Shown here in pieces: positions 3,132-19,854 of a DNA stretch of 20,000 nt (positions within the stretch are counted from its first letter, which is position 1; each line of letters opens with the position of its first letter). The stretch lies in IMG/VR virus record IMGVR_UViG_3300000304_000038. One strand, written 5' to 3'. The translations under genes and the position numbers were made by a program. The notes beneath the pieces are model-generated. The model was not told the DNA's origin. It was given only the letters and a program-made list of their open reading frames with translations, and did no database searches. Source of the stretch: an uncultured virus (IMG/VR IMGVR_UViG_3300000304_000038) (taxonomy: Duplodnaviria; Heunggongvirae; Uroviricota; Caudoviricetes).

Positions 3132-3935
3132 CTATAGCTCATTTGCTTTTCTAATAAGTTTTTCCTGAATCACATCTATCTTCATCCGAGTTACCGTATA
3201 GATAATATTTTTATTCCACTCTCTTGGACCGTTTCCTGTGACAAAGAATTTATATTCCGTAGCCTCGTTGATATAAAACTTTTGACAAAGCTCTTCAATT
3301 CTCTCTGGGTCTTGCTTTCCCTGCTTGATTTTTAGAATCAGCTCTCCAAAAGGTCCATCGCCGACAGCAAGAATCTCCTTGTAGGGCAAACCTCTATAAA
3401 AGTCTGAAAGCATGGAACAAAGCCGTAGACAATGATATGCGGCCTTAGAATCTTTTCCATTAGATGCTATGACCTTATCAAACTCACGAGCCATCATACC
3501 ACGAAAACTACTAATGGTGCGGGAGGGGTCGCAATAAGCAATCTCTTCTCTAATGCTGCGCAGCTCCTCAAACTCTTCCTTATACTTGAGGTTCACAAGA
3601 GTTCCCTTGGCGAACAAAGTCTCTACAAAGTTGGGATTTTGCTTTAGAAGATATGAAAAATATTTCCGCATATCATAGATAGAACAGATGCCGCTATAAA
3701 AGGCTCTTGAAACATCCTTCTCTTGACTGACCATCGACTCGGGATGAAGAATATAGTGCATATTGGGGATCAGAACAAGCTTTGAGTCAATGTCACTTTG
3801 TTCATCATCAAGACTATAGTTCATACTTCCAACAGAAGAGATAAAAAACCAGTCCATATCGTAAGAGCTGGTACGAGAGACATCAGTCACATGATTTCTT
3901 AGTATATCGTTCAGAGCAGAGACATCAATCTTCAT
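3132..3935 (-). CDS. Pol-beta-superfamily nucleotidyltransferase (RlaP/PF10127-like)
   Basis: GSxNYxL...SDID motif (VGSMNYSLDDEQSDIDSK), KQNPNFVETLF, KAAYHCLRL. Confidence 0.75.
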   Translation of the reverse strand: MKIDVSALNDILRNHVTDVSRTSSYDMDWFFISSVGSMNYSLDDEQSDIDSKLVLIPNMHYILHPESMVSQEKDVSRAFYSGICSIYDMRKYFSYLLKQNPNFVETLFAKGTLVNLKYKEEFEELRSIREEIAYCDPSRTISSFRGMMAREFDKVIASNGKDSKAAYHCLRLCSMLSDFYRGLPYKEILAVGDGPFGELILKIKQGKQDPERIEELCQKFYINEATEYKFFVTGNGPREWNKNIIYTVTRMKIDVIQEKLIRKANEL

Positions 3936-4125
3936 AATCTATATCCTCATAATCCTCACTAAGTTCTTTGCGTTCATGCTCTCGCCGCAAACGCTCAGCT
4001 CGAATCTTATCCTTTGCGGCGTTGCGATTCTTTGGCCCCTTCCAATTGGGGCGAGTAGGCTTGAAACGCTCGAACGTCTCGTATTCATCATCCTCTAGCT
4101 CGATATCCTTTGCTAGATTACGCAT
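3925..4125 (-). CDS. Small charged hypothetical protein (66 aa; likely start MRNLAK)
   Basis: ATG at 4125 overlaps the upstream gene end; GGGGG SD-like sequence. Confidence 0.65.
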   Translation of the reverse strand: MRNLAKDIELEDDEYETFERFKPTRPNWKGPKNRNAAKDKIRAERLRREHERKELSEDYEDIDYED

Positions 4126-4306
4126 TCTTACCCCCATTGAAGATGATGTAGTTGCCGCATTCACAGATTACCACATTGGTATTCTCTGGCTTGTACATCA
4201 CTTTGCCGCATTGCTTACACTTGAACTCTCGCTCCTTCTTCTTGCGGCGAGGCTTGGGAGCCTCGGCTAGACCGCTGAAAACTAAAGCCTTCTGTAGAGC
4301 GTTCAT
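4118..4306 (-). CDS. Small basic zinc-ribbon protein
   Basis: CKQC...CECG motif preceded by a Lys/Arg-rich stretch; AAGGA SD. Confidence 0.7.
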   Translation of the reverse strand: MNALQKALVFSGLAEAPKPRRKKKEREFKCKQCGKVMYKPENTNVVICECGNYIIFNGGKNA

Positions 4307-4323
4307 TAGATAAAATCCTTTCT

Positions 4324-4686
4324 CTATCTTTCCTCAATAAGATGAACCACAGCGGGCACACCCATTTCTTTGGCATATCTAATTGTAAACAAAGTACCCT
4401 TAGACTGTCCATCCCAAAATGCGACTACCTTATCTGCCGCATTTACCATATCTTTGTCTCTCTCTATTGGAGCGTATTTGCCACCATAAACCTCATATTG
4501 TGGCAGATACGCACAGAACTCAATGTTGTTTCTCTTGGCCCATTGTTCGGCTAGAGTGTCGATTCCTGTCGCCCCTCCGCTGATTACCTCTGAATAATCA
4601 TCTGCATCGAGATACCAATCTAGATTTAGAGACTTGATTGACCTTGAGCCGCAAATAAGAAGAATTGGTTTGCTACTCTTGGGCAT
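4324..4686 (-). CDS. YspA/cpYpsA-related SLOG-family protein
   Basis: ICGSR, ISGGATGIDTLAEQWA, RDKDMV and VAFWDGQSKGT motifs. Confidence 0.85.
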   Translation of the reverse strand: MPKSSKPILLICGSRSIKSLNLDWYLDADDYSEVISGGATGIDTLAEQWAKRNNIEFCAYLPQYEVYGGKYAPIERDKDMVNAADKVVAFWDGQSKGTLFTIRYAKEMGVPAVVHLIEER

Positions 4687-4927
4687 TATAAATATCTCCG
4701 ATATCGTATTCTAGATAGTCGTTGATAGAGATATCTAAATTCCTATATTCTCCATCTTTCAGAACAGTCACATAAGGAGTACCATATCTAGTCTCTCTAT
4801 ATTTATCTACTATTTCTCCTCCACTAAATCTATCATTCTCTGTCAGTCTATCCGCTATTACGAATCCAAGCCCTACCAGAGAAAGAATTAGAAAAGCCGC
4901 AATTATTTTATCTACAAAATTATTCAT
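4673..4927 (-). CDS. Small membrane-anchored hypothetical protein
   Basis: N-terminal hydrophobic helix IIAAFLILSLVGLGFVIA; AAAGGA SD. Confidence 0.7.
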   Translation of the reverse strand: MNNFVDKIIAAFLILSLVGLGFVIADRLTENDRFSGGEIVDKYRETRYGTPYVTVLKDGEYRNLDISINDYLEYDIGDIYNAQE

Positions 4928-4944
4928 AAATAATCCTTTTTGTG

Positions 4945-5301
4945 TTAGATATTATTTGTAGCAGAAAGAATAGGAATATGTTCTTCAGAAGGACACCATA
5001 TATCCGTGTCCGCAGAAAAACCATCTATATTGGAACAAGCATATTGATTATACATAATTCTCTCTAGCCCAAGTATCTCTGCGGCCTTAGCTGCAACATA
5101 TAAAAAGTCCTTGTCGCTAACCTCCACACGAACACATTTTCCATAGAAAGGAGGTAGAATATCTAGCATATCCTTTGAACAAAATAGATTTATTTGTTTT
5201 ACTATCTTTTCTTTTGCAAATCTCCCATCAGAAAGTTTACTTAGCTCTTGCCAGAACTCAGGCTTATCGCATTTGTCCTCTATCTCAAAGTAGTAGGTCA
5301 T
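4945..5301 (-). CDS. Hypothetical protein (118 aa)
   Basis: ORF abutting the upstream stop codon in the operon. Confidence 0.65.
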   Translation of the reverse strand: MTYYFEIEDKCDKPEFWQELSKLSDGRFAKEKIVKQINLFCSKDMLDILPPFYGKCVRVEVSDKDFLYVAAKAAEILGLERIMYNQYACSNIDGFSADTDIWCPSEEHIPILSATNNI

Positions 5302-5562
5302 TTACATCGTTGCCGTTCTCTTGGTTGGAATTCTATAGAATATCCAAGAGCCGTTCTCTGTCACATGAATATCGTATTTACTTGGGCATTCGTAGAGCAC
5401 GGGGAAATATGGCTCTAGTCTCCACTTCGTCTCTCTGTTAGAGAAGCCTTTGATGTGCAGAGTATCATCGTTTCCCTCGAAAGTATAGTGAGCATTATAA
5501 TCCTCATTGAGCTTGTCAATGATTCTACCCACTTCCTCCGCAGAATATTCAGTCTTTATCAA
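5302..5562 (-). CDS. Hypothetical protein (86 aa, TTG start)
   Basis: Start overlaps the upstream stop (TTGA); fills the operon gap exactly. Confidence 0.6.
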   Translation of the reverse strand: MIKTEYSAEEVGRIIDKLNEDYNAHYTFEGNDDTLHIKGFSNRETKWRLEPYFPVLYECPSKYDIHVTENGSWIFYRIPTKRTATM

Positions 5563-14634: not shown

Positions 14635-14708
14635 TGGCTGGACTTAAAGGTGCTGCCCCTTTTTCTATTGAGTCAGAGTCAATCGTTTTACTGTTAAACT
14701 AAAGTCCA
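14635..14708 (-). tRNA. tRNA-Gln(CTG)
   Basis: U1-A72, loop CT-CTG-AC, G-CCA. Confidence 0.9.
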
Positions 14709-15446
14709 ATCATCATCTGAAATGCTACAAATCTCTCTCTTTTTAAATGGAAGATTATAAAATATACACCATTTCCTAATTGTGTTATCTCTAACACCAT
14801 ATTCTTTTCCTATTGCAGTGAAAGTTTGAGTTCTAATTTTAGATTTTAATTCTTCTCTAGAAGGTCTTTCTACTTTTCTTCTATTCTCCGCACTACATTC
14901 TGGACATAAAAGACTATAATCTGTTTTTAATTCTTTTCCACATTCTTGGCAGTATCTTTTTGGTCTTTCTATATAGGTTTTATTTTTACTTCCAAAAGTA
15001 GGTAATTGCCTATCGCAATTTGGACATACCCAACGAAGATTTTCAATTCTATTGTCTGTATGGTCTCCATTGATATGGTCTAATGTCAGAGTCAATTCTT
15101 TGTTATTCCATACAGGAGGCAATCCACAGATAGCACATTTATACTCTAATAAATCATGTTGCTTAATATATCTCTTAATATAGTTCATGGAAGCACTAGA
15201 ATGCTCGCAAAAAGAATTCTCAAAAGTTCTTTCTTCTTTTTTTGATGCCATAGCGCAAAAATGAGAATAGTCTATATTATTATCTTCTAATACAGCTCTA
15301 ACTATATCGTTTTGTTTTCCTCCGCTAACACACTGATAACCTATTTTTCTTTCAACTTCCTTAAAAGAAAACGAATTTGCAACAATTTCTCTTAATTCAT
15401 CAACGGGTATTTGTGAGACTAAGCTATTCATTGATTTCGACCGCAT
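14694..15446 (-). CDS. HNH homing-type endonuclease
   Basis: CAIC...LTLDHINGDHTDNRIENLRWVCPNC, a second Zn finger, and a C-terminal HTH-like segment; AT-rich; AAAGGA SD. Confidence 0.9.
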   Translation of the reverse strand: MRSKSMNSLVSQIPVDELREIVANSFSFKEVERKIGYQCVSGGKQNDIVRAVLEDNNIDYSHFCAMASKKEERTFENSFCEHSSASMNYIKRYIKQHDLLEYKCAICGLPPVWNNKELTLTLDHINGDHTDNRIENLRWVCPNCDRQLPTFGSKNKTYIERPKRYCQECGKELKTDYSLLCPECSAENRRKVERPSREELKSKIRTQTFTAIGKEYGVRDNTIRKWCIFYNLPFKKREICSISDDDWTLV

Positions 15447-15562
15447 AAACAAAATCCTTTCTTAGACAATAATATGTTGAGTTATATAAATACAAATTTA
15501 AAAAAGAGATTTTTATTTATAACGGCCCATAGATTTTCCTTTTTATAAATGAAAGTGCGAAA

Positions 15563-15697
15563 TTACTTATTCTGAGCCGCTTCCAGCTTCCAAATCTTTC
15601 TCTGAGTCTTCTGGAGAACGCCAGTCCCCTCAGAGTTCTTGCCGTTCAGAAGTAGACGCTGGTAGCGTGCCTTTAGAACCTCGATATCATTTGACAT
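15563..15697 (-). CDS. 44-aa hypothetical protein (MSNDIEVLKARY...)
   Basis: AAAAGGAG SD upstream of the ATG at 15697; the longer ORF-track start overlaps a tRNA. Confidence 0.65.
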   Translation of the reverse strand: MSNDIEVLKARYQRLLLNGKNSEGTGVLQKTQRKIWKLEAAQNK

Positions 15698-15733
15698 ATA
15701 TATTCTCCTTTTGTCTCTTGGATAATGACCATA

Positions 15734-15825
15734 TGGTGCGACCGACTCGACTTGAACGAGCAATGTGGTTTCTAAGCCACGCTACTTTAGGAGAGTAGTG
15801 CCTTATCCGATTAGGCTACGGCCGC
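15734..15825 (-). tRNA. tRNA-Arg(CCT) with long variable arm
   Basis: CTACT-CT-CCT-AA-AGTAG arm; extra arm GTGG-CTTAGAAA-CCAC; TTCAA T-loop; A-CCA. Confidence 0.88.
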
Positions 15826-15830
15826 ATAAA

Positions 15831-16039
15831 AAAAGAATACAATATAGAGAAGAGGGAGATAGGACTTTCATCTTACTTGGGCTTTCTCTGTATTATGGGA
15901 CTTATTGTATGCGCGCTTTTATTCGTCCCTGTCGGACCTCGGTGTTACTTATTCCGGCTTTTCACACCTACTACCTTCACCAATGCTGCTTCATAGCCGC
16001 GTATTCACCCAAAGCCTATTCTCTATATTGTATTCTTTT
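15831..16039 (-). ncRNA. Candidate ~209-nt structured RNA closed by a perfect 21-bp stem
   Basis: 15831-15851 and 16019-16039 are exact reverse complements; no credible ORF; strand inferred from the array. Confidence 0.55.
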
Positions 16040-16956: not shown

Positions 16957-17031
16957 TGGTAGCGGATGGGGGTTACGCTCCCCCTTCTCTGGCTTGAAAG
17001 GCCAGCGAATTTACTATTGTTCTAATCCGCC
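16957..17031 (-). tRNA. tRNA-Glu(TTC)
   Basis: CTGGC-CT-TTC-AA-GCCAG arm, CCA. Confidence 0.9.
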
Positions 17032-17655
17032 AATAAAATATTTCCAAAAATATCCATATGCGCTTTTTCTTTTACCTTTGATTACTTCGGTAATATGCTG
17101 TGTTTTTCTTTCAGATCCTAAAAAACGTCCAGCCTCTTTTATAGATTCAAATATTTTCAATACTTGAAAAGTTTCTTTATCGCACATTGCAACCTTGTGA
17201 CTAAATAGCTTTTTTGCTTGTTTGCTTTGAGATAAAATTTCTACTCCATATTCTTTACAAGCTGTTCTCACGGTTCGTTCATTACAACCAAAATAAGAAG
17301 CAGTTTGTTGTTCATTGAGTAATTCAAGATATTTATTTGCTATTTCTTTATAGTTATAAAATTGTTTTCCATCTCCCCCACGAGTAGCATTATAACCATA
17401 ATGATAAGTGTTTAGTTTATCTATCCAATATTCTTCTCTGGCAGGAGCTTCTTCTGGAGAACATTCTTCTAATTCTTCAATAGAAAAATGTTCTACTCCA
17501 TATTTATTCATAGCACTATAAAGAGGACGTTTTTTGCGTCTTATTCTTTGTCTCTCTTTCTTGTGTTCTTCAAAACGGTCTTCTATCGTTTTATTAGTTT
17601 TACCAACATACTGTTTGCCATTTATATCATTAGTAATTACATAAATAAAGGCCAT
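17014..17655 (-). CDS. GIY-YIG homing-type endonuclease with C-terminal NUMOD1/IENR1-like module
   Basis: FIYVITN...QYVGKT...RFEEH...REEYWI...GYNATRGG; C-terminal FESIKEAGRFLG...KSAYGYFWKY. Confidence 0.9.
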   Translation of the reverse strand: MAFIYVITNDINGKQYVGKTNKTIEDRFEEHKKERQRIRRKKRPLYSAMNKYGVEHFSIEELEECSPEEAPAREEYWIDKLNTYHYGYNATRGGDGKQFYNYKEIANKYLELLNEQQTASYFGCNERTVRTACKEYGVEILSQSKQAKKLFSHKVAMCDKETFQVLKIFESIKEAGRFLGSERKTQHITEVIKGKRKSAYGYFWKYFIGGLEQ

Positions 17656-17765
17656 GATTCCCAACTTTCTACCCAACATCTGAATAAACAGATGGGCAGG
17701 TGGTTGGGTTTATTCACTTTTCACTAAGCTAGCTACTTCTTAGCTAGCCTATCTGTTATTAACAA

Positions 17766-18288: not shown

Positions 18289-18362
18289 TGGTTGCAAGGT
18301 CCGGTAACGCTCCGGCTTGTAAGCGCTTATGAGACGCTTCGAGAACTTTCCTCCCCCTTGCA
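18289..18362 (-). tRNA. tRNA with CAT anticodon (Met; Ile2 not excluded)
   Basis: AGCGT-CT-CAT-AA-GCGCT arm, U1-A72, short D-arm, A-CCA. Confidence 0.8.
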
Positions 18363-18365
18363 ATA

Positions 18366-18441
18366 TGGTCGCAGTGACTAGAGTCGAACTAGCTGTCTCT
18401 GGCTTATGAGGCCAGCATGGAAACCGTTTCACCCCACTGCT
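18366..18441 (-). tRNA. tRNA-Met(CAT), initiator-like
   Basis: A1.G72 mismatch, CTGGC-CT-CAT-AA-GCCAG arm, A-CCA; lacks the full three G-C anticodon pairs. Confidence 0.82.
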
Positions 18442-18447
18442 ATATAT

Positions 18448-18549
18448 GAGAGAACAACCTTCTACAAGGCACCAGCGAAGGCCAAGTGACAAGCTTGACT
18501 CTTTCCTTGCGGGAGCACTGGTATCTGGGGTGTGACCCTTTGCTCTCTC
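18448..18549 (-). ncRNA. Candidate ~100-nt structured RNA at a transcript 5' end
   Basis: Closing stem GAGAGAGCAA/TTGTTCTCTC; inner ACCAGTG/CGCTGGT; GCAA tetraloop. Confidence 0.5.
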
Positions 18550-18561
18550 TTGTCGATGAAT

Positions 18562-18591
18562 ATTATACAACAAGTCAAAGACTGTTGTCCA
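18562..18591 (-). promoter_or_regulatory. Promoter TGGACA-18-TATAAT
   Basis: -35 at 18586-18591, -10 at 18562-18567; the spacer is itself a hairpin. Confidence 0.65.
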
Positions 18592-18593
18592 TA

Positions 18594-18727
18594 ATATTTT
18601 TGGAAAACACTAGTTGAAATCCCAAGCTTATGCGAACTGGTGGCAATGCGACTAATGCTCTCCAAAAATATGACTGATTTTTTGATCTTTCCACTGTAGC
18701 AGGAACTCTCTTGGAAAAAATCAGTCA
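18594..18727 (-). ncRNA. Two abutting long-stem hairpin elements (18594-18671, 18671-18727)
   Basis: 21-bp stem with three G.U pairs only on the minus strand, and a perfect 13-bp stem. Confidence 0.5.
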
Positions 18728-19236
18728 AAAACCATTAGAAACCGCTGCGACGTTTCAGGGTATTTTACTCGGTGCCCCGCGTCCAAGTATCCGAGACCGG
18801 TTTTCCTCTGTTTTAGTGAGTGACAAGTAAACCGCGTTGAAACCCCATACCTCCAACTCATTCTTTCTTCCAGTAGTCCGATCGGCTTAGTCACTATGGA
18901 AGCGAAGAACCTAAGAGAGGAGAATTCGTTTTTGGACAGAACCAATCCTCAAAGCATAACTGTTGGTGGTGAGGAAGTAAAAAATAGCATTAGTCTTGCA
19001 GGAAGTGGCTGTTGCTTTCTTTACACCTCGTCGTTCGGCGTATCAGTTTTTTACTGACACGCTGCCTCATGCCGCAAACCCCTATGGCGCGACAACTATT
19101 CGAACCAGCCCTACGCGAGTGACGCATTCTCCTCTTTCGAGTAACCCATTCTCGGGCCTTATGCTACCAGAGTTATTCGCTCTGACAGGGAACTTCGAAT
19201 CCGCTGCTCTCCACTCAGAACCGTCTTATAGCCAAA
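18728..19236 (-). ncRNA. Candidate large (~500 nt) structured ncRNA in the tRNA array
   Basis: No credible ORF; many hairpins and several long-range helices (see findings). Confidence 0.6.
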
Positions 19237-19239
19237 ATA

Positions 19240-19313
19240 TGGTGGTCTCGACAGGTAACGCTCCTGTGTTTTGGGTTTATCAGACCCATGTACTACTTTT
19301 GTACGACAAGACC
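19240..19313 (-). tRNA. tRNA-Ile(GAT)
   Basis: TGGGT-CT-GAT-AA-ACCCA arm, A-CCA. Confidence 0.9.
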
Positions 19314-19315
19314 AA

Positions 19316-19581
19316 TGGTACGCCCGCTCAGGATCGAACTGAGATCGAAGGATTACTTACTACGTCGCTTTCACATCGTAGTCTGGACTTTATCTTCTTC
19401 TCTTGGAGAAGCCTCGTGTAAAGTCTCTACACATAGATTCAAGAAGAATCCTTGCTCGGTATTGGCGTATTGCATTTGCAACTTAGCTTCCACCGACTTA
19501 GCGAGGTTTTCCACTATTGGTTGCCCAATAGCGCTCCTAATTAGTCAAGAGTCCCCTATTCTACCATTGAACTACGGGCAC
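19316..19581 (-). tRNA. tRNA-Lys(CTT) split by a group I intron (exons 19548-19581 and 19316-19355)
   Basis: Joined exons give a complete cloverleaf: GTGCCCG/CGGGCGT acceptor, GGGGA-CT-CT|T-AA-TCCTT arm, TTCGA, A-CCA. Confidence 0.9.
19356..19547 (-). mobile_element. 192-nt ORF-less group I intron at tRNA position 35/36
   Basis: 5' exon ends in U paired to G in P1 (CUCU|UGA...UUAGGAG); P7 elements GUAGAGACUUU and AAGAUAAAGUCC; terminal G. Confidence 0.9.
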
Positions 19582-19593
19582 GTATAAACAATA

Positions 19594-19678
19594 TGGTCCC
19601 GCCTCTAGGTACCGCCCCTAGCCAGTCATAGACACAGGTTTTACAGACCTGCTCACGTCTTTAGTGATATACGACGGG
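19594..19678 (-). tRNA. tRNA-Tyr(GTA) with C1-G72
   Basis: CAGGT-CT-GTA-AA-ACCTG arm, small variable stem GTC-TAT-GAC, A-CCA. Confidence 0.85.
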
Positions 19679-19760: not shown

Positions 19761-19854
19761 TGGTCGGACGTCTGTGATTCGAACACAAGATTCGCGCTAA
19801 TCTGGCACTAATACACTTTATAGGAGTGTTGTTTTTCTACTAAACTAACGCCCG
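19761..19854 (-). tRNA. tRNA-Ile(TAT)-like with long variable arm and C33
   Basis: CGGGCGT/ACGTCCG acceptor, ACACT-CC-TAT-AA-AGTGT arm, extra arm GTGC-CAGATTA-GCGC, TTCGAAT, A-CCA. Confidence 0.8.

Follow-up and report, generated by a model that had tools for sequence, protein, structure and literature searches.

What occupies the roughly 500 nucleotides (nt) behind the gene for tRNA-Ile(GAU) in the transfer RNA (tRNA) array of an uncultured large phage? The stretch analyzed, hereafter the window, comprises 20,000 nt of the IMG/VR record IMGVR_UViG_3300000304_000038 (Caudoviricetes), and Pfam matches were obtained for 9 of the 20 open reading frames (ORFs) submitted. The element in question was defined as the minus-strand stretch from the encoded CCA of tRNA-Ile(GAU) (19240) to a terminator hairpin (18726-18664). 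An earlier analysis of the letters alone, referred to here as the sequence-only reading, had placed a structured non-coding RNA 3 nt behind this tRNA, in the tRNA operon and on the tRNA strand, and this placement was confirmed in the sequence. The element represents a new family that is narrowly distributed, modular, and dispensable. We tentatively read it as a structured non-coding RNA of modular build, undescribed so far and encoded in the phage's first tRNA transcription unit.

The tRNA array is encoded on the minus strand from 19854 to 13639, with 12 genes called by ARAGORN and 16 by Rfam at the gathering score. The element begins directly behind the tRNA-Ile gene (19240..19313, with encoded CCA), which was missed by ARAGORN and scored 53.1 bits with the Rfam tRNA model (19313-19243, CCA to 19240). 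Its anticodon loop, CUGAUAA, identifies it as Ile(GAU), and an unusual T-loop, AGCGUUA, was read directly. Promoter-like sites were found on the minus strand at 20000-19972 and 18591-18562, and the element occupies the end of the first tRNA transcription unit, between the two sites. The second site (TGGACA-18-TATAAT, 18562..18591, 11 of 12 matches) starts the next tRNA unit and thereby bounds the transcription unit of the element.

A non-coding element of no known family

A single full homologue was fetched, the IMG/VR contig G002, which is ~78% identical. BLAST matched it in three pieces: the two that cover the element have expectation values (E) of 1e-37 and 1.5e-48, and the third, on the adjoining promoter-leader, has 5.8e-51. 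Among the relatives, G002 stands closest to the window phage, with a SpoU protein 89% identical compared to 56-58% in the others; over stretches longer than 150 nt, identity between the protein genes of the two is 67-82%. Within the element, identity to G002 reached 94.3% over a block of 70 nt (19076..19144) and 93.3% over a block of 105 nt in the 3' core. Overall, the 3' core was 89.7% identical, compared to 78.3% for the 5' part.

The claim that the element is non-coding was borne out by this comparison. ORFs of 74, 45, 33, and 88 amino acids on the minus strand and 141, 53, 39, and 36 amino acids on the plus strand overlap the element; a Pfam scan of four of them matched no family, and no ORF of the window was kept in frame in G002. 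Substitutions between the window and G002 were evenly spread over the three codon positions (25/23/20 and 28/29/30), and the internal gaps (1, 2, 2, 2, 1, 46, and 1 nt, and 17, 1, 2, 5, 1, 8, and 47 nt) were mostly not multiples of three.

A search of 4,227 Rfam families at the gathering score returned no match in 18442-19242, and scans at E <= 10 of 7 kb, 611 nt, 331 nt, and 486 nt of the window assigned no family to the element. The sole matches under these lax settings were chance hits of miRNA models on the terminator hairpin. The null result is meaningful because the lax setting does detect a group I intron 120 nt upstream (46.7 bits). The covariance-model check thus upheld the absence of a recognized family, with the GOLLD, ROOL, tmRNA, RNase P, and intron models included; neither GOLLD nor ROOL matched at E <= 10 in the window or in G002, and an Rfam scan of the G002 element also gave no family. 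In addition, a full-text literature search on structured RNAs in phage tRNA arrays or islands turned up only work on GOLLD and ROOL.

Several candidate identities were rejected. The Intron_gpI model matched neither half of the element under the settings that find the upstream intron, and neither ARAGORN nor the Rfam models called a tRNA, tmRNA, or RNase P RNA on it. A likeness of two short motifs to conserved regions of RNase P RNA was borne out by no model hit.

The distribution of the element appeared to be narrow. Five IMG/VR contigs share the Band_7 gene of the window, and the element was found in one of these, G002, by both BLAST and covariance models. Models built for the 3' domain (R1) and the 5' domain (R2) each matched only the window and G002 when run on the five related records, the window, and phage T4. 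Both domains were absent by these models from G001, a complete genome of 143.6 kb with terminal repeats. No match to the element was found among the INPHARED phages, where a search with the 7.9-kb array retrieved only tRNAs and HNH pieces, each covering at most 3% of the query. In a scan for four exact words among viral contigs, G002 was the only real match, with chance loci accounting for 12 of 13, 1 of 2, and 3 of 4; all 24 loci among metagenome contigs were due to chance, and two words gave no locus among genome contigs. A protein-guided search recovered five loci with Band_7 and one with SpoU, which was G002 again. The conserved block is not repeated elsewhere in the window. The SpoU methylase and the RlaP-like protein were considered as partners by co-occurrence and rejected, as both are also encoded by G001, which is without the element.

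Public sequencing runs provided additional copies. Among the 24 runs listed, 20 (from 12 studies) share 4-28% of sampled words with the stretch, and the habitat evidence rests on four of them: X1 (chicken gut), X3 (bird), X17 (chicken-gut metatranscriptome), and X2. The copies in run contigs are ~96% identical to the window. Contigs of X1 and X3 cover 18794-19350 with 19 and 24 differences, respectively, and share a cover gap at 18694-18767, while an X2 contig covers 18289-18950. In the metatranscriptome X17, two contigs cover exactly 18794-19214, followed by 255 unlike letters beyond 18794, and contain nothing of the flanking tRNAs, whereas the DNA-type contigs run on to 19350. The X17 contigs give a weak hint of a transcript of the element.

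Two separable domains, a variable tail, and a terminator

The homologue in G002 is split. Its 5' part (14676-14950) corresponds to 19244-18921 of the window and begins at the CCA of a tRNA-Phe, while its 3' part (15586-15833) corresponds to 18918-18664 and begins 6 nt behind an Rfam-called tRNA (L010 2332-2403). The two parts lie ~635 nt apart with three called tRNAs between them, and the intervening stretch contains a hairpin of 17 bp, ~300 nt of unassigned sequence, a tRNA look-alike resembling Tyr, an intron-less tRNA-Lys(CUU), tRNA-Ile(GAU), and, as the third, the Rfam-called tRNA that precedes the 3' part. Given this separation, the halves of the element are separable modules. In an X2 contig, the 5' module stands behind the 3' end of a further, different tRNA (read by eye from the loose end at 19226), and a variant contig of X1 is similar to the window over 19062-19226 only.

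In the RNAalifold consensus of the window and G002, the core of the 5' domain extends over 19095..19232 and is built as a junction of several hairpins, shut off by the stem GCUA/UAGU and by an extended imperfect helix (19226-19203 with 19128-19100). The core of G002 folds with a z-score of -4.12, with none of 200 shuffles folding as well, compared to -1.35 in the window. A T-loop-like hairpin (19190..19202) has a 3-bp stem and the loop UUCGAAG in the window, and a 4-bp stem, GAAG/CUUC, with the loop UUCGAGU in G002; its stem is altered on both sides while UUCGA is retained in the loop. This alignment was read by eye because MAFFT misplaces the gap. In the hairpin Ha (19164..19188; CUGUCAGAG/CUCUGGUAG, 7-nt loop), all eight pairs are kept in G002, two changed on both sides and one on one side, and the run variant G19178>U is located in the loop. 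The hairpin Hb (19143..19158) pairs GGCCC with GGGUU in the window and GGUCU with AGAUU, around a GUAA loop, in G002; two C-G pairs were replaced by U-A as read by eye, of which RNAalifold counts one.

The most conserved block of the domain, at 19076..19144, includes a CUC-GAAA-GAG tetraloop hairpin (19141-19132), the purine run AGAGGAGAAU, and GGUUCGAAU, and it has the highest contig depth in run X2. The substitution G19101>A, seen in G002 and in the runs, retains a T-loop-type purine. Farther downstream, the hairpin Hd (19038..19062; GCGUGUCAGU/ACUGAUACGC) has a pair probability of ~1. Its outer 4 bp are kept in G002, where the inner stem is swapped for another pairing stem, and the run variants C19061>U and G19058>A keep the pairing. 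A variable insert follows (18972..19017), which coincides with a 46-column gap in G002 and holds five of the 13 listed in-element run variants. The hairpin Hf (18921..18949; AGGAUU/AAUUCU) ends the 5' module. At its pair 18947:18923, the window has G-U, G002 has G-C, and runs X1 and X3 have A-U.

The core of the 3' domain (18794..18912) contains the hairpin Hg (18901-18868), an invariant hairpin GUUGGAG/UUUCAAC (18857-18836), and the invariant ACUUGU(C/U)ACUCACUAAAACAGAGGAAAACCGGUCU. Similarity to run contigs ends at 18794, the outer edge of this core. The hairpin P3a (18768..18795; CUCGG/CCGAG) opens a variable 3' tail; one of its C-G pairs is replaced by U-A in G002, and a third pairing version was read by eye in loose ends of X1 and X17. 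The tail itself (18684..18793), between the 3' domain and the terminator, is swapped for 258 other letters in an X3 contig, is unlike the window in X1 and X17, and is loosely alignable in G002. The terminator is an intrinsic-terminator-like hairpin (18664..18726; GACUGAUUUUUU/AAAAAAUCAGUC, 31-nt loop, then AUAUUUUU) with a 12-bp stem (18726-18715/18683-18672) and pair probabilities of 0.25-1.0. It has the stem-loop and the U run of an intrinsic terminator and is kept in the relative, although its AU-rich stem and 31-nt loop are atypical. In G002, it has 11 consensus pairs, two with changes on both sides. It did not appear in a terminator scan because the loop limit of that scan is 8.

Seven hairpins keep their pairing through compensatory changes, namely Ha, Hb, the T-loop hairpin, Hd, Hf, P3a, and the terminator. 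RNAalifold counted pairs changed on both sides at 7 of 74 in the 5' part and 4 of 53 in the 3' part. The local 5' hairpins proposed in the sequence-only reading were 90.9% paired in G002 with three double changes, compared to 34-57% and zero to one for slid partners, and the 3' hairpins were 84.2% paired with one double change. Among the proposed hairpins, UGUCAGAG/CUCUGGUA, GCGUGUCAGU/ACUGAUACGC, and CUCGG/CCGAG were supported by the comparison of homologue and runs, as was the inner part of UUCCAUAGU/ACUACUGGAA. Run variants were assessed from the best 13 in-element variants listed, beyond which 90 further differences were present. All four that fall in supported hairpin stems (19061, 19058, 18947, and 18838, the last in the GUUGGAG/UUUCAAC hairpin) keep the pairing; of the rest, three are in loops, five in the variable insert, and one (18829) breaks a consensus helix.

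The long-range part of the proposed structure fared differently. Every complementary segment named in the sequence-only reading is present on the minus strand, at or near the place assigned to it. The 10-bp helix AGAGGAGAAU (19135-19126)/AUUCUCCUCU (18925-18916) is among them and has a pair probability of ~1 in the window ensemble, but it is not conserved. Its arms overlap two conserved local hairpins, the invariant CUC-GAAA-GAG on the 5' side and Hf, whose 3' arm overlaps its own, on the 3' side. In G002, the pyrimidine run matching the helix is the only complementary run and is locked in the 17-bp local hairpin. When the 509 nt were shuffled as mononucleotides, 22 of 300 shuffles contained a perfect helix of at least 10 bp. 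The helices joining the 5' and 3' ends, AGACGGUU (19226-19219)/AACCGGUCU (18802-18794), with one bulged G, and UGAGUGG (19217-19211)/UCACUCA (18823-18817), also exist in the window. Their 5' strand (19211..19226, minus strand) has at least three alternative partners, and the pair probability of its long-range pairing is 0.00. The duplex energy of 19226-19203 is -15.5 kcal/mol with 18828-18790 and -20.9 kcal/mol with 19128-19092. Three smaller features were likewise found as described, but without conservation: the 3' arm of GUUUCA (18843-18838)/UGAAAC (18757-18752) is missing in G002; both copies of ACUUCCU (19006-19000 and 18978-18972) lie in the variable insert; and the 5' arm of UCCUCA/UGAGGA is in the insert, which is absent from G002, and two run variants break this hairpin.

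Consensus folding of each half, and of the joined halves, gave two closed domains in which the 5'-3' helices were not formed. Hence, the proposal of a single RNA of ~500 nt held together by the long-range helices was not supported, given the split in G002, the two-domain consensus fold, and the conservation of Hf, which competes with the 10-bp helix. Both domains were found in every carrier seen (the window, G002, and contigs of X1, X2, X3, and X17). The complementary strands 19226-19211 and 18823-18794 barely vary, the two substitutions seen in them fit both partners, and the similarity limits of the run contigs, 19226 and 18794, coincide with the outer ends of these strands. The modular split, the self-closed consensus folds, and the co-occurrence together indicate two self-folding domains that probably belong together.

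A perfect 17-bp hairpin stands directly behind the 5' module of G002 (L010 1776-1963, corresponding to G002 14953-15140). The purine motif of the module recurs in the 5' arm of this hairpin, which also masks a Shine-Dalgarno-like site together with an ATG. The frame starting there encodes 57 amino acids, beginning MFTTTTTTRR.

Interpretation of the element and rival explanations

T4 RNAC and RNAD were already known 50 years ago, and cage formation has now been demonstrated for GOLLD and ROOL. The element is best read as an RNA of the same kind. In T4, two RNAs stand in a row directly behind the last tRNA of the cluster and on the tRNA strand, where tRNA-Arg is followed 2 nt later by rnaD (RNAD, species 2, 119 nt) and then by rnaC (RNAC, species 1, 139 nt), and a GIY-YIG homing endonuclease gene (segB) lies inside the cluster, as a GIY-YIG gene does in the array of the window. 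In contrast, no homology of sequence or structure was found, as scores on the T4 region, computed with filters off, peaked at 7.7 bits for R1 and 2.0 bits for R2, and the domains of the element are larger (about 140-320 nt and 120 nt) and separable by tRNAs. The function of RNAC and RNAD is given as unknown in excerpts of two papers (PMC3014915, PMC9697503). GOLLD is a large ornate RNA encoded by phages and prophages. According to an excerpt of PMC12286853, it has a less conserved 5' region and a conserved 3' region, sometimes with tRNAs in the linker, and occurs near phage tRNA islands; the same excerpt describes ROOL as a phage or prophage RNA of unknown function, often near tRNA islands. 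The likeness to GOLLD is one of layout only, as the element is phage-borne beside tRNA genes, has a better-conserved 3' core, and has tRNAs in its junction in G002. However, it gives no match to the GOLLD model, and its conserved span is about 430 nt compared to more than 800 in GOLLD. ROOL is similar in size and also located near tRNA islands, but its model does not match either, and its pseudoknotted single-domain fold was not in evidence here. The suggestion of a new class of large phage RNA was overstated for two full sequences, while a new family of modular stable RNA in a phage tRNA island fits.

Most likely, the element is a stable, trans-acting RNA matured together with the tRNAs. Such an RNA would comprise the 5' domain (the core at 19232-19095 plus hairpins to 18921), the 3' domain (18912-18794), the variable tail, and the terminator, with each domain folding alone and a junction that would tolerate large insertions, such as the three called tRNAs and one tRNA-like sequence of the relative. 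Transcription would start at the promoter-like site at 20000-19972 and yield the RNA as a section of the tRNA precursor. Release of its 5' end would fall to the nucleases responsible for 3' trimming of the tRNA in front, and the terminator would define its 3' end; both pieces of the split form would be released in this way and would then build up as stable RNA acting in trans. The RNA may serve as a scaffold or decoy for a protein or another RNA during infection, as is thought for T4 RNAC/RNAD and GOLLD/ROOL, possibly through contacts made by its invariant unpaired blocks, GNRA loops, and T-loop motifs.

Several observations weigh against this interpretation. The complete relative G001 is without both domains, which makes the element dispensable. 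Evidence at the RNA level comes from one study and consists of contigs only, for which DNA carry-over is possible. With only two full sequences, the covariation statistics are weak, and the observed covariation was reached by 56 of 500 shuffles for the 5' hairpins and 260 of 500 for the 3' hairpins. The thermodynamic stability is unremarkable: the minimum free energy of the whole element is -155.4 kcal/mol compared to -151.7 +/- 6.2 in shuffles (z = -0.60), 28 of 100 shuffles folded at least as well, and the z-scores were -1.35 for the window 5' core and +0.47 and -0.54 for the 3' cores. Judged from the window sequence alone, the pairing does not exceed chance. In the consensus model of the 3' domain, one helix is broken by the run variant U18829>C. 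Finally, the high-identity patches could be recombination mosaics and not the result of selection, since the adjacent 286 nt reach 94.8% identity and variants have exchanged their tails.

Among the rival explanations, two or more unrelated small stable RNAs lying side by side, with functionally unlinked domains, would account for the G002 domains standing ~635 nt and three called tRNAs apart, each behind its own tRNA, for each domain being a closed unit in the consensus fold, for the X1 variant contig that is similar only over 19062-19226, and for the precedent of two separate RNAs at the same position in T4. We consider this unlikely, as both domains are present in every carrier seen and both absent from G001, the strands 19226-19211 and 18823-18794 barely vary and keep their pairing through two changes, and the similarity limits at 19226 and 18794 coincide with these strands. 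The same barely varying strands speak for a single RNA of ~500 nt closed by the 5'-3' and 10-bp helices, as proposed in the sequence-only reading, since they mark the conserved limits and still pair after their two changes, all helices exist in the window, and the 10-bp helix has a pair probability of ~1. Such a closed fold is a minority possibility and quite improbable, however: the 10-bp helix is within chance (22 of 300 shuffles), its arms overlap the conserved Hf and the invariant CUC-GAAA-GAG hairpin, and the only complementary run in G002 sits in the 17-bp local hairpin, while the 5'-3' helices have a pair probability of 0.00, have a weaker duplex energy than that with an internal partner (-15.5 compared to -20.9 kcal/mol), and are missing from the joined consensus fold. 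Held at the same low level is a bipartite, GOLLD-like RNA of a new family, encoded as one gene in the window or as two split by a tRNA cassette in G002, whose halves would re-associate through 19226-19211/18823-18794 after excision of the tRNAs. If true, the product would be an ornate RNA in two pieces, which may form higher-order assemblies consisting of RNA only around phage tRNAs.

Rearrangement of the array raises a further explanation, that the element is a non-functional spacer, a mosaic of debris left by recombination and homing-endonuclease traffic with incidental hairpins. The array is highly rearranged between relatives and contains HNH and GIY-YIG endonuclease genes, the element is absent from the complete G001, its stability is not above that of shuffles, and its covariation statistics are weak. 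Nevertheless, compensatory changes were found in seven separate hairpins, the terminator included; blocks of 93-94% identity adjoin stems that have diverged and still pair; the G002 5' core has a z-score of -4.12; and the modules occur in three different contexts, always directly behind a tRNA and on its strand, so that a spacer appears decidedly improbable. A cis-acting trailer, controlling the processing, stability, or termination and read-through of the tRNA transcript by using mutually exclusive pairings as a switch, would suit both the position between the last tRNA and the terminator and the several strands with two or three alternative partners. It is given very little credence, because exchange of the tail that separates the 3' domain from the terminator is free (X3 has 258 other letters there), the 5' domain of G002 is far from the terminator, and a new promoter-like site follows at once, from which read-through control would gain little. 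Least probable of all is a second, divergent Y-like RNA working with the phage's own Ro60/Rsr protein. A TROVE-domain protein scored above the cut-off in three of the five related records, including G002, the 5' domain consists of a head with a T-loop hairpin, closed by a long bulged stem, and second Y RNAs with a T-arm escaped bioinformatic detection, according to an excerpt of Chen et al. (2014; PMC4201824). The long stem and the head with its T-loop hairpin are the likeness of the element to YrlA and other bacterial Y RNAs, in a phage lineage that encodes Rsr. Against it, no YrlA or Y_RNA model matched the element, no D-arm-like partner motif was seen, and G001 and G004 have rsr while G001 is without the element. 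Moreover, the element is not adjacent to rsr, lying ~10 kb from it in G002, where a separate and better YrlA-like RNA (31.7 bits, full model length) stands directly upstream of the gene and thereby makes a Y-RNA role for the element unlikely.

An undescribed modular RNA of this kind would add to the recurring observation that phage tRNA islands harbor large or small stable RNAs of unknown function, as a family without sequence relation to T4 RNAC/RNAD, GOLLD, or ROOL. With two full sequences and a narrow distribution, the finding is modest by itself. Its joined and split forms constitute a natural experiment on whether the two domains work together, and the cores, at about 140 and 120 nt, are small enough for chemical probing, cryo-electron microscopy scaffolding, and pull-downs. 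A lineage with Ro60/Rsr and a Y-like RNA, a group I intron in tRNA-Lys, and odd T-loops also represents a compact system for the study of phage RNA management.

Other features of the array and its relatives

The Pfam-matched genes of the window encode GyrB, an RlaP-like nucleotidyltransferase, PhoH, a SpoU methylase, ThyX, a Band_7 protein, and HNH and GIY-YIG endonucleases. The best matches of GyrB among 50,697 phage records are at most 33% identical. The genes for the HNH and GIY-YIG/NUMOD homing endonucleases lie inside the tRNA array, at 14694-15452 and 17014-17679 on the minus strand, and their presence, as with segB in T4, fits the heavy rearrangement of the array between relatives.

In the relatives, frames of 487-510 amino acids with the TROVE domain of Ro60/Rsr were found at ~3900-5400 in G002, ~96000-97400 in G001, and 36700-38296 in G004. 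A YrlA-like RNA lies directly upstream of rsr in G002 (3777-3881) and G001 (95798-95914), scoring 30-34 bits, below gathering. The window ends before the expected place of rsr and the YrlA-like RNA.

Upstream of tRNA-Ile, the gene for tRNA-Lys(CUU) (19325-19578, minus strand) is interrupted in its anticodon loop by a small group I intron (19362-19559). The Intron_gpI model scored 46.7 bits (E = 6e-11) on 401 nt, where the gathering score is 50; the scan of 7 kb did not pick it up. In G002, the gene for this tRNA is uninterrupted. Non-standard T-loops (AGCGUUA, GGCGGUA) were read by eye in place of UUCGAAU at 19243-19313, 19594-19678, and 18290-18366 on the minus strand, corresponding to tRNA-Ile(GAU), a Tyr(GUA)-like sequence with a long arm, and a sequence with a CAU anticodon and an 8-bp acceptor stem. 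The Tyr(GUA)-like and CAU-anticodon sequences were missed by both ARAGORN and Rfam.

The tRNA with the anticodon UAU (19761-19854, minus strand) is 94 nt long, owing to a long extra arm or an insertion; its counterparts are 91-94 nt in the related locus L003 and in G002, and 75 nt in the related locus L004. Downstream of the element, a leader of ~110 nt (18445-18555, minus strand), closed by AGAGAGCAA/UUGUUCUCU, occupies the space between the promoter-like site and the next tRNA. This leader falls in the 286-nt stretch (18574-18289) that is 94.8% identical to G002, and it may represent either a further small RNA or a cassette exchanged recently.

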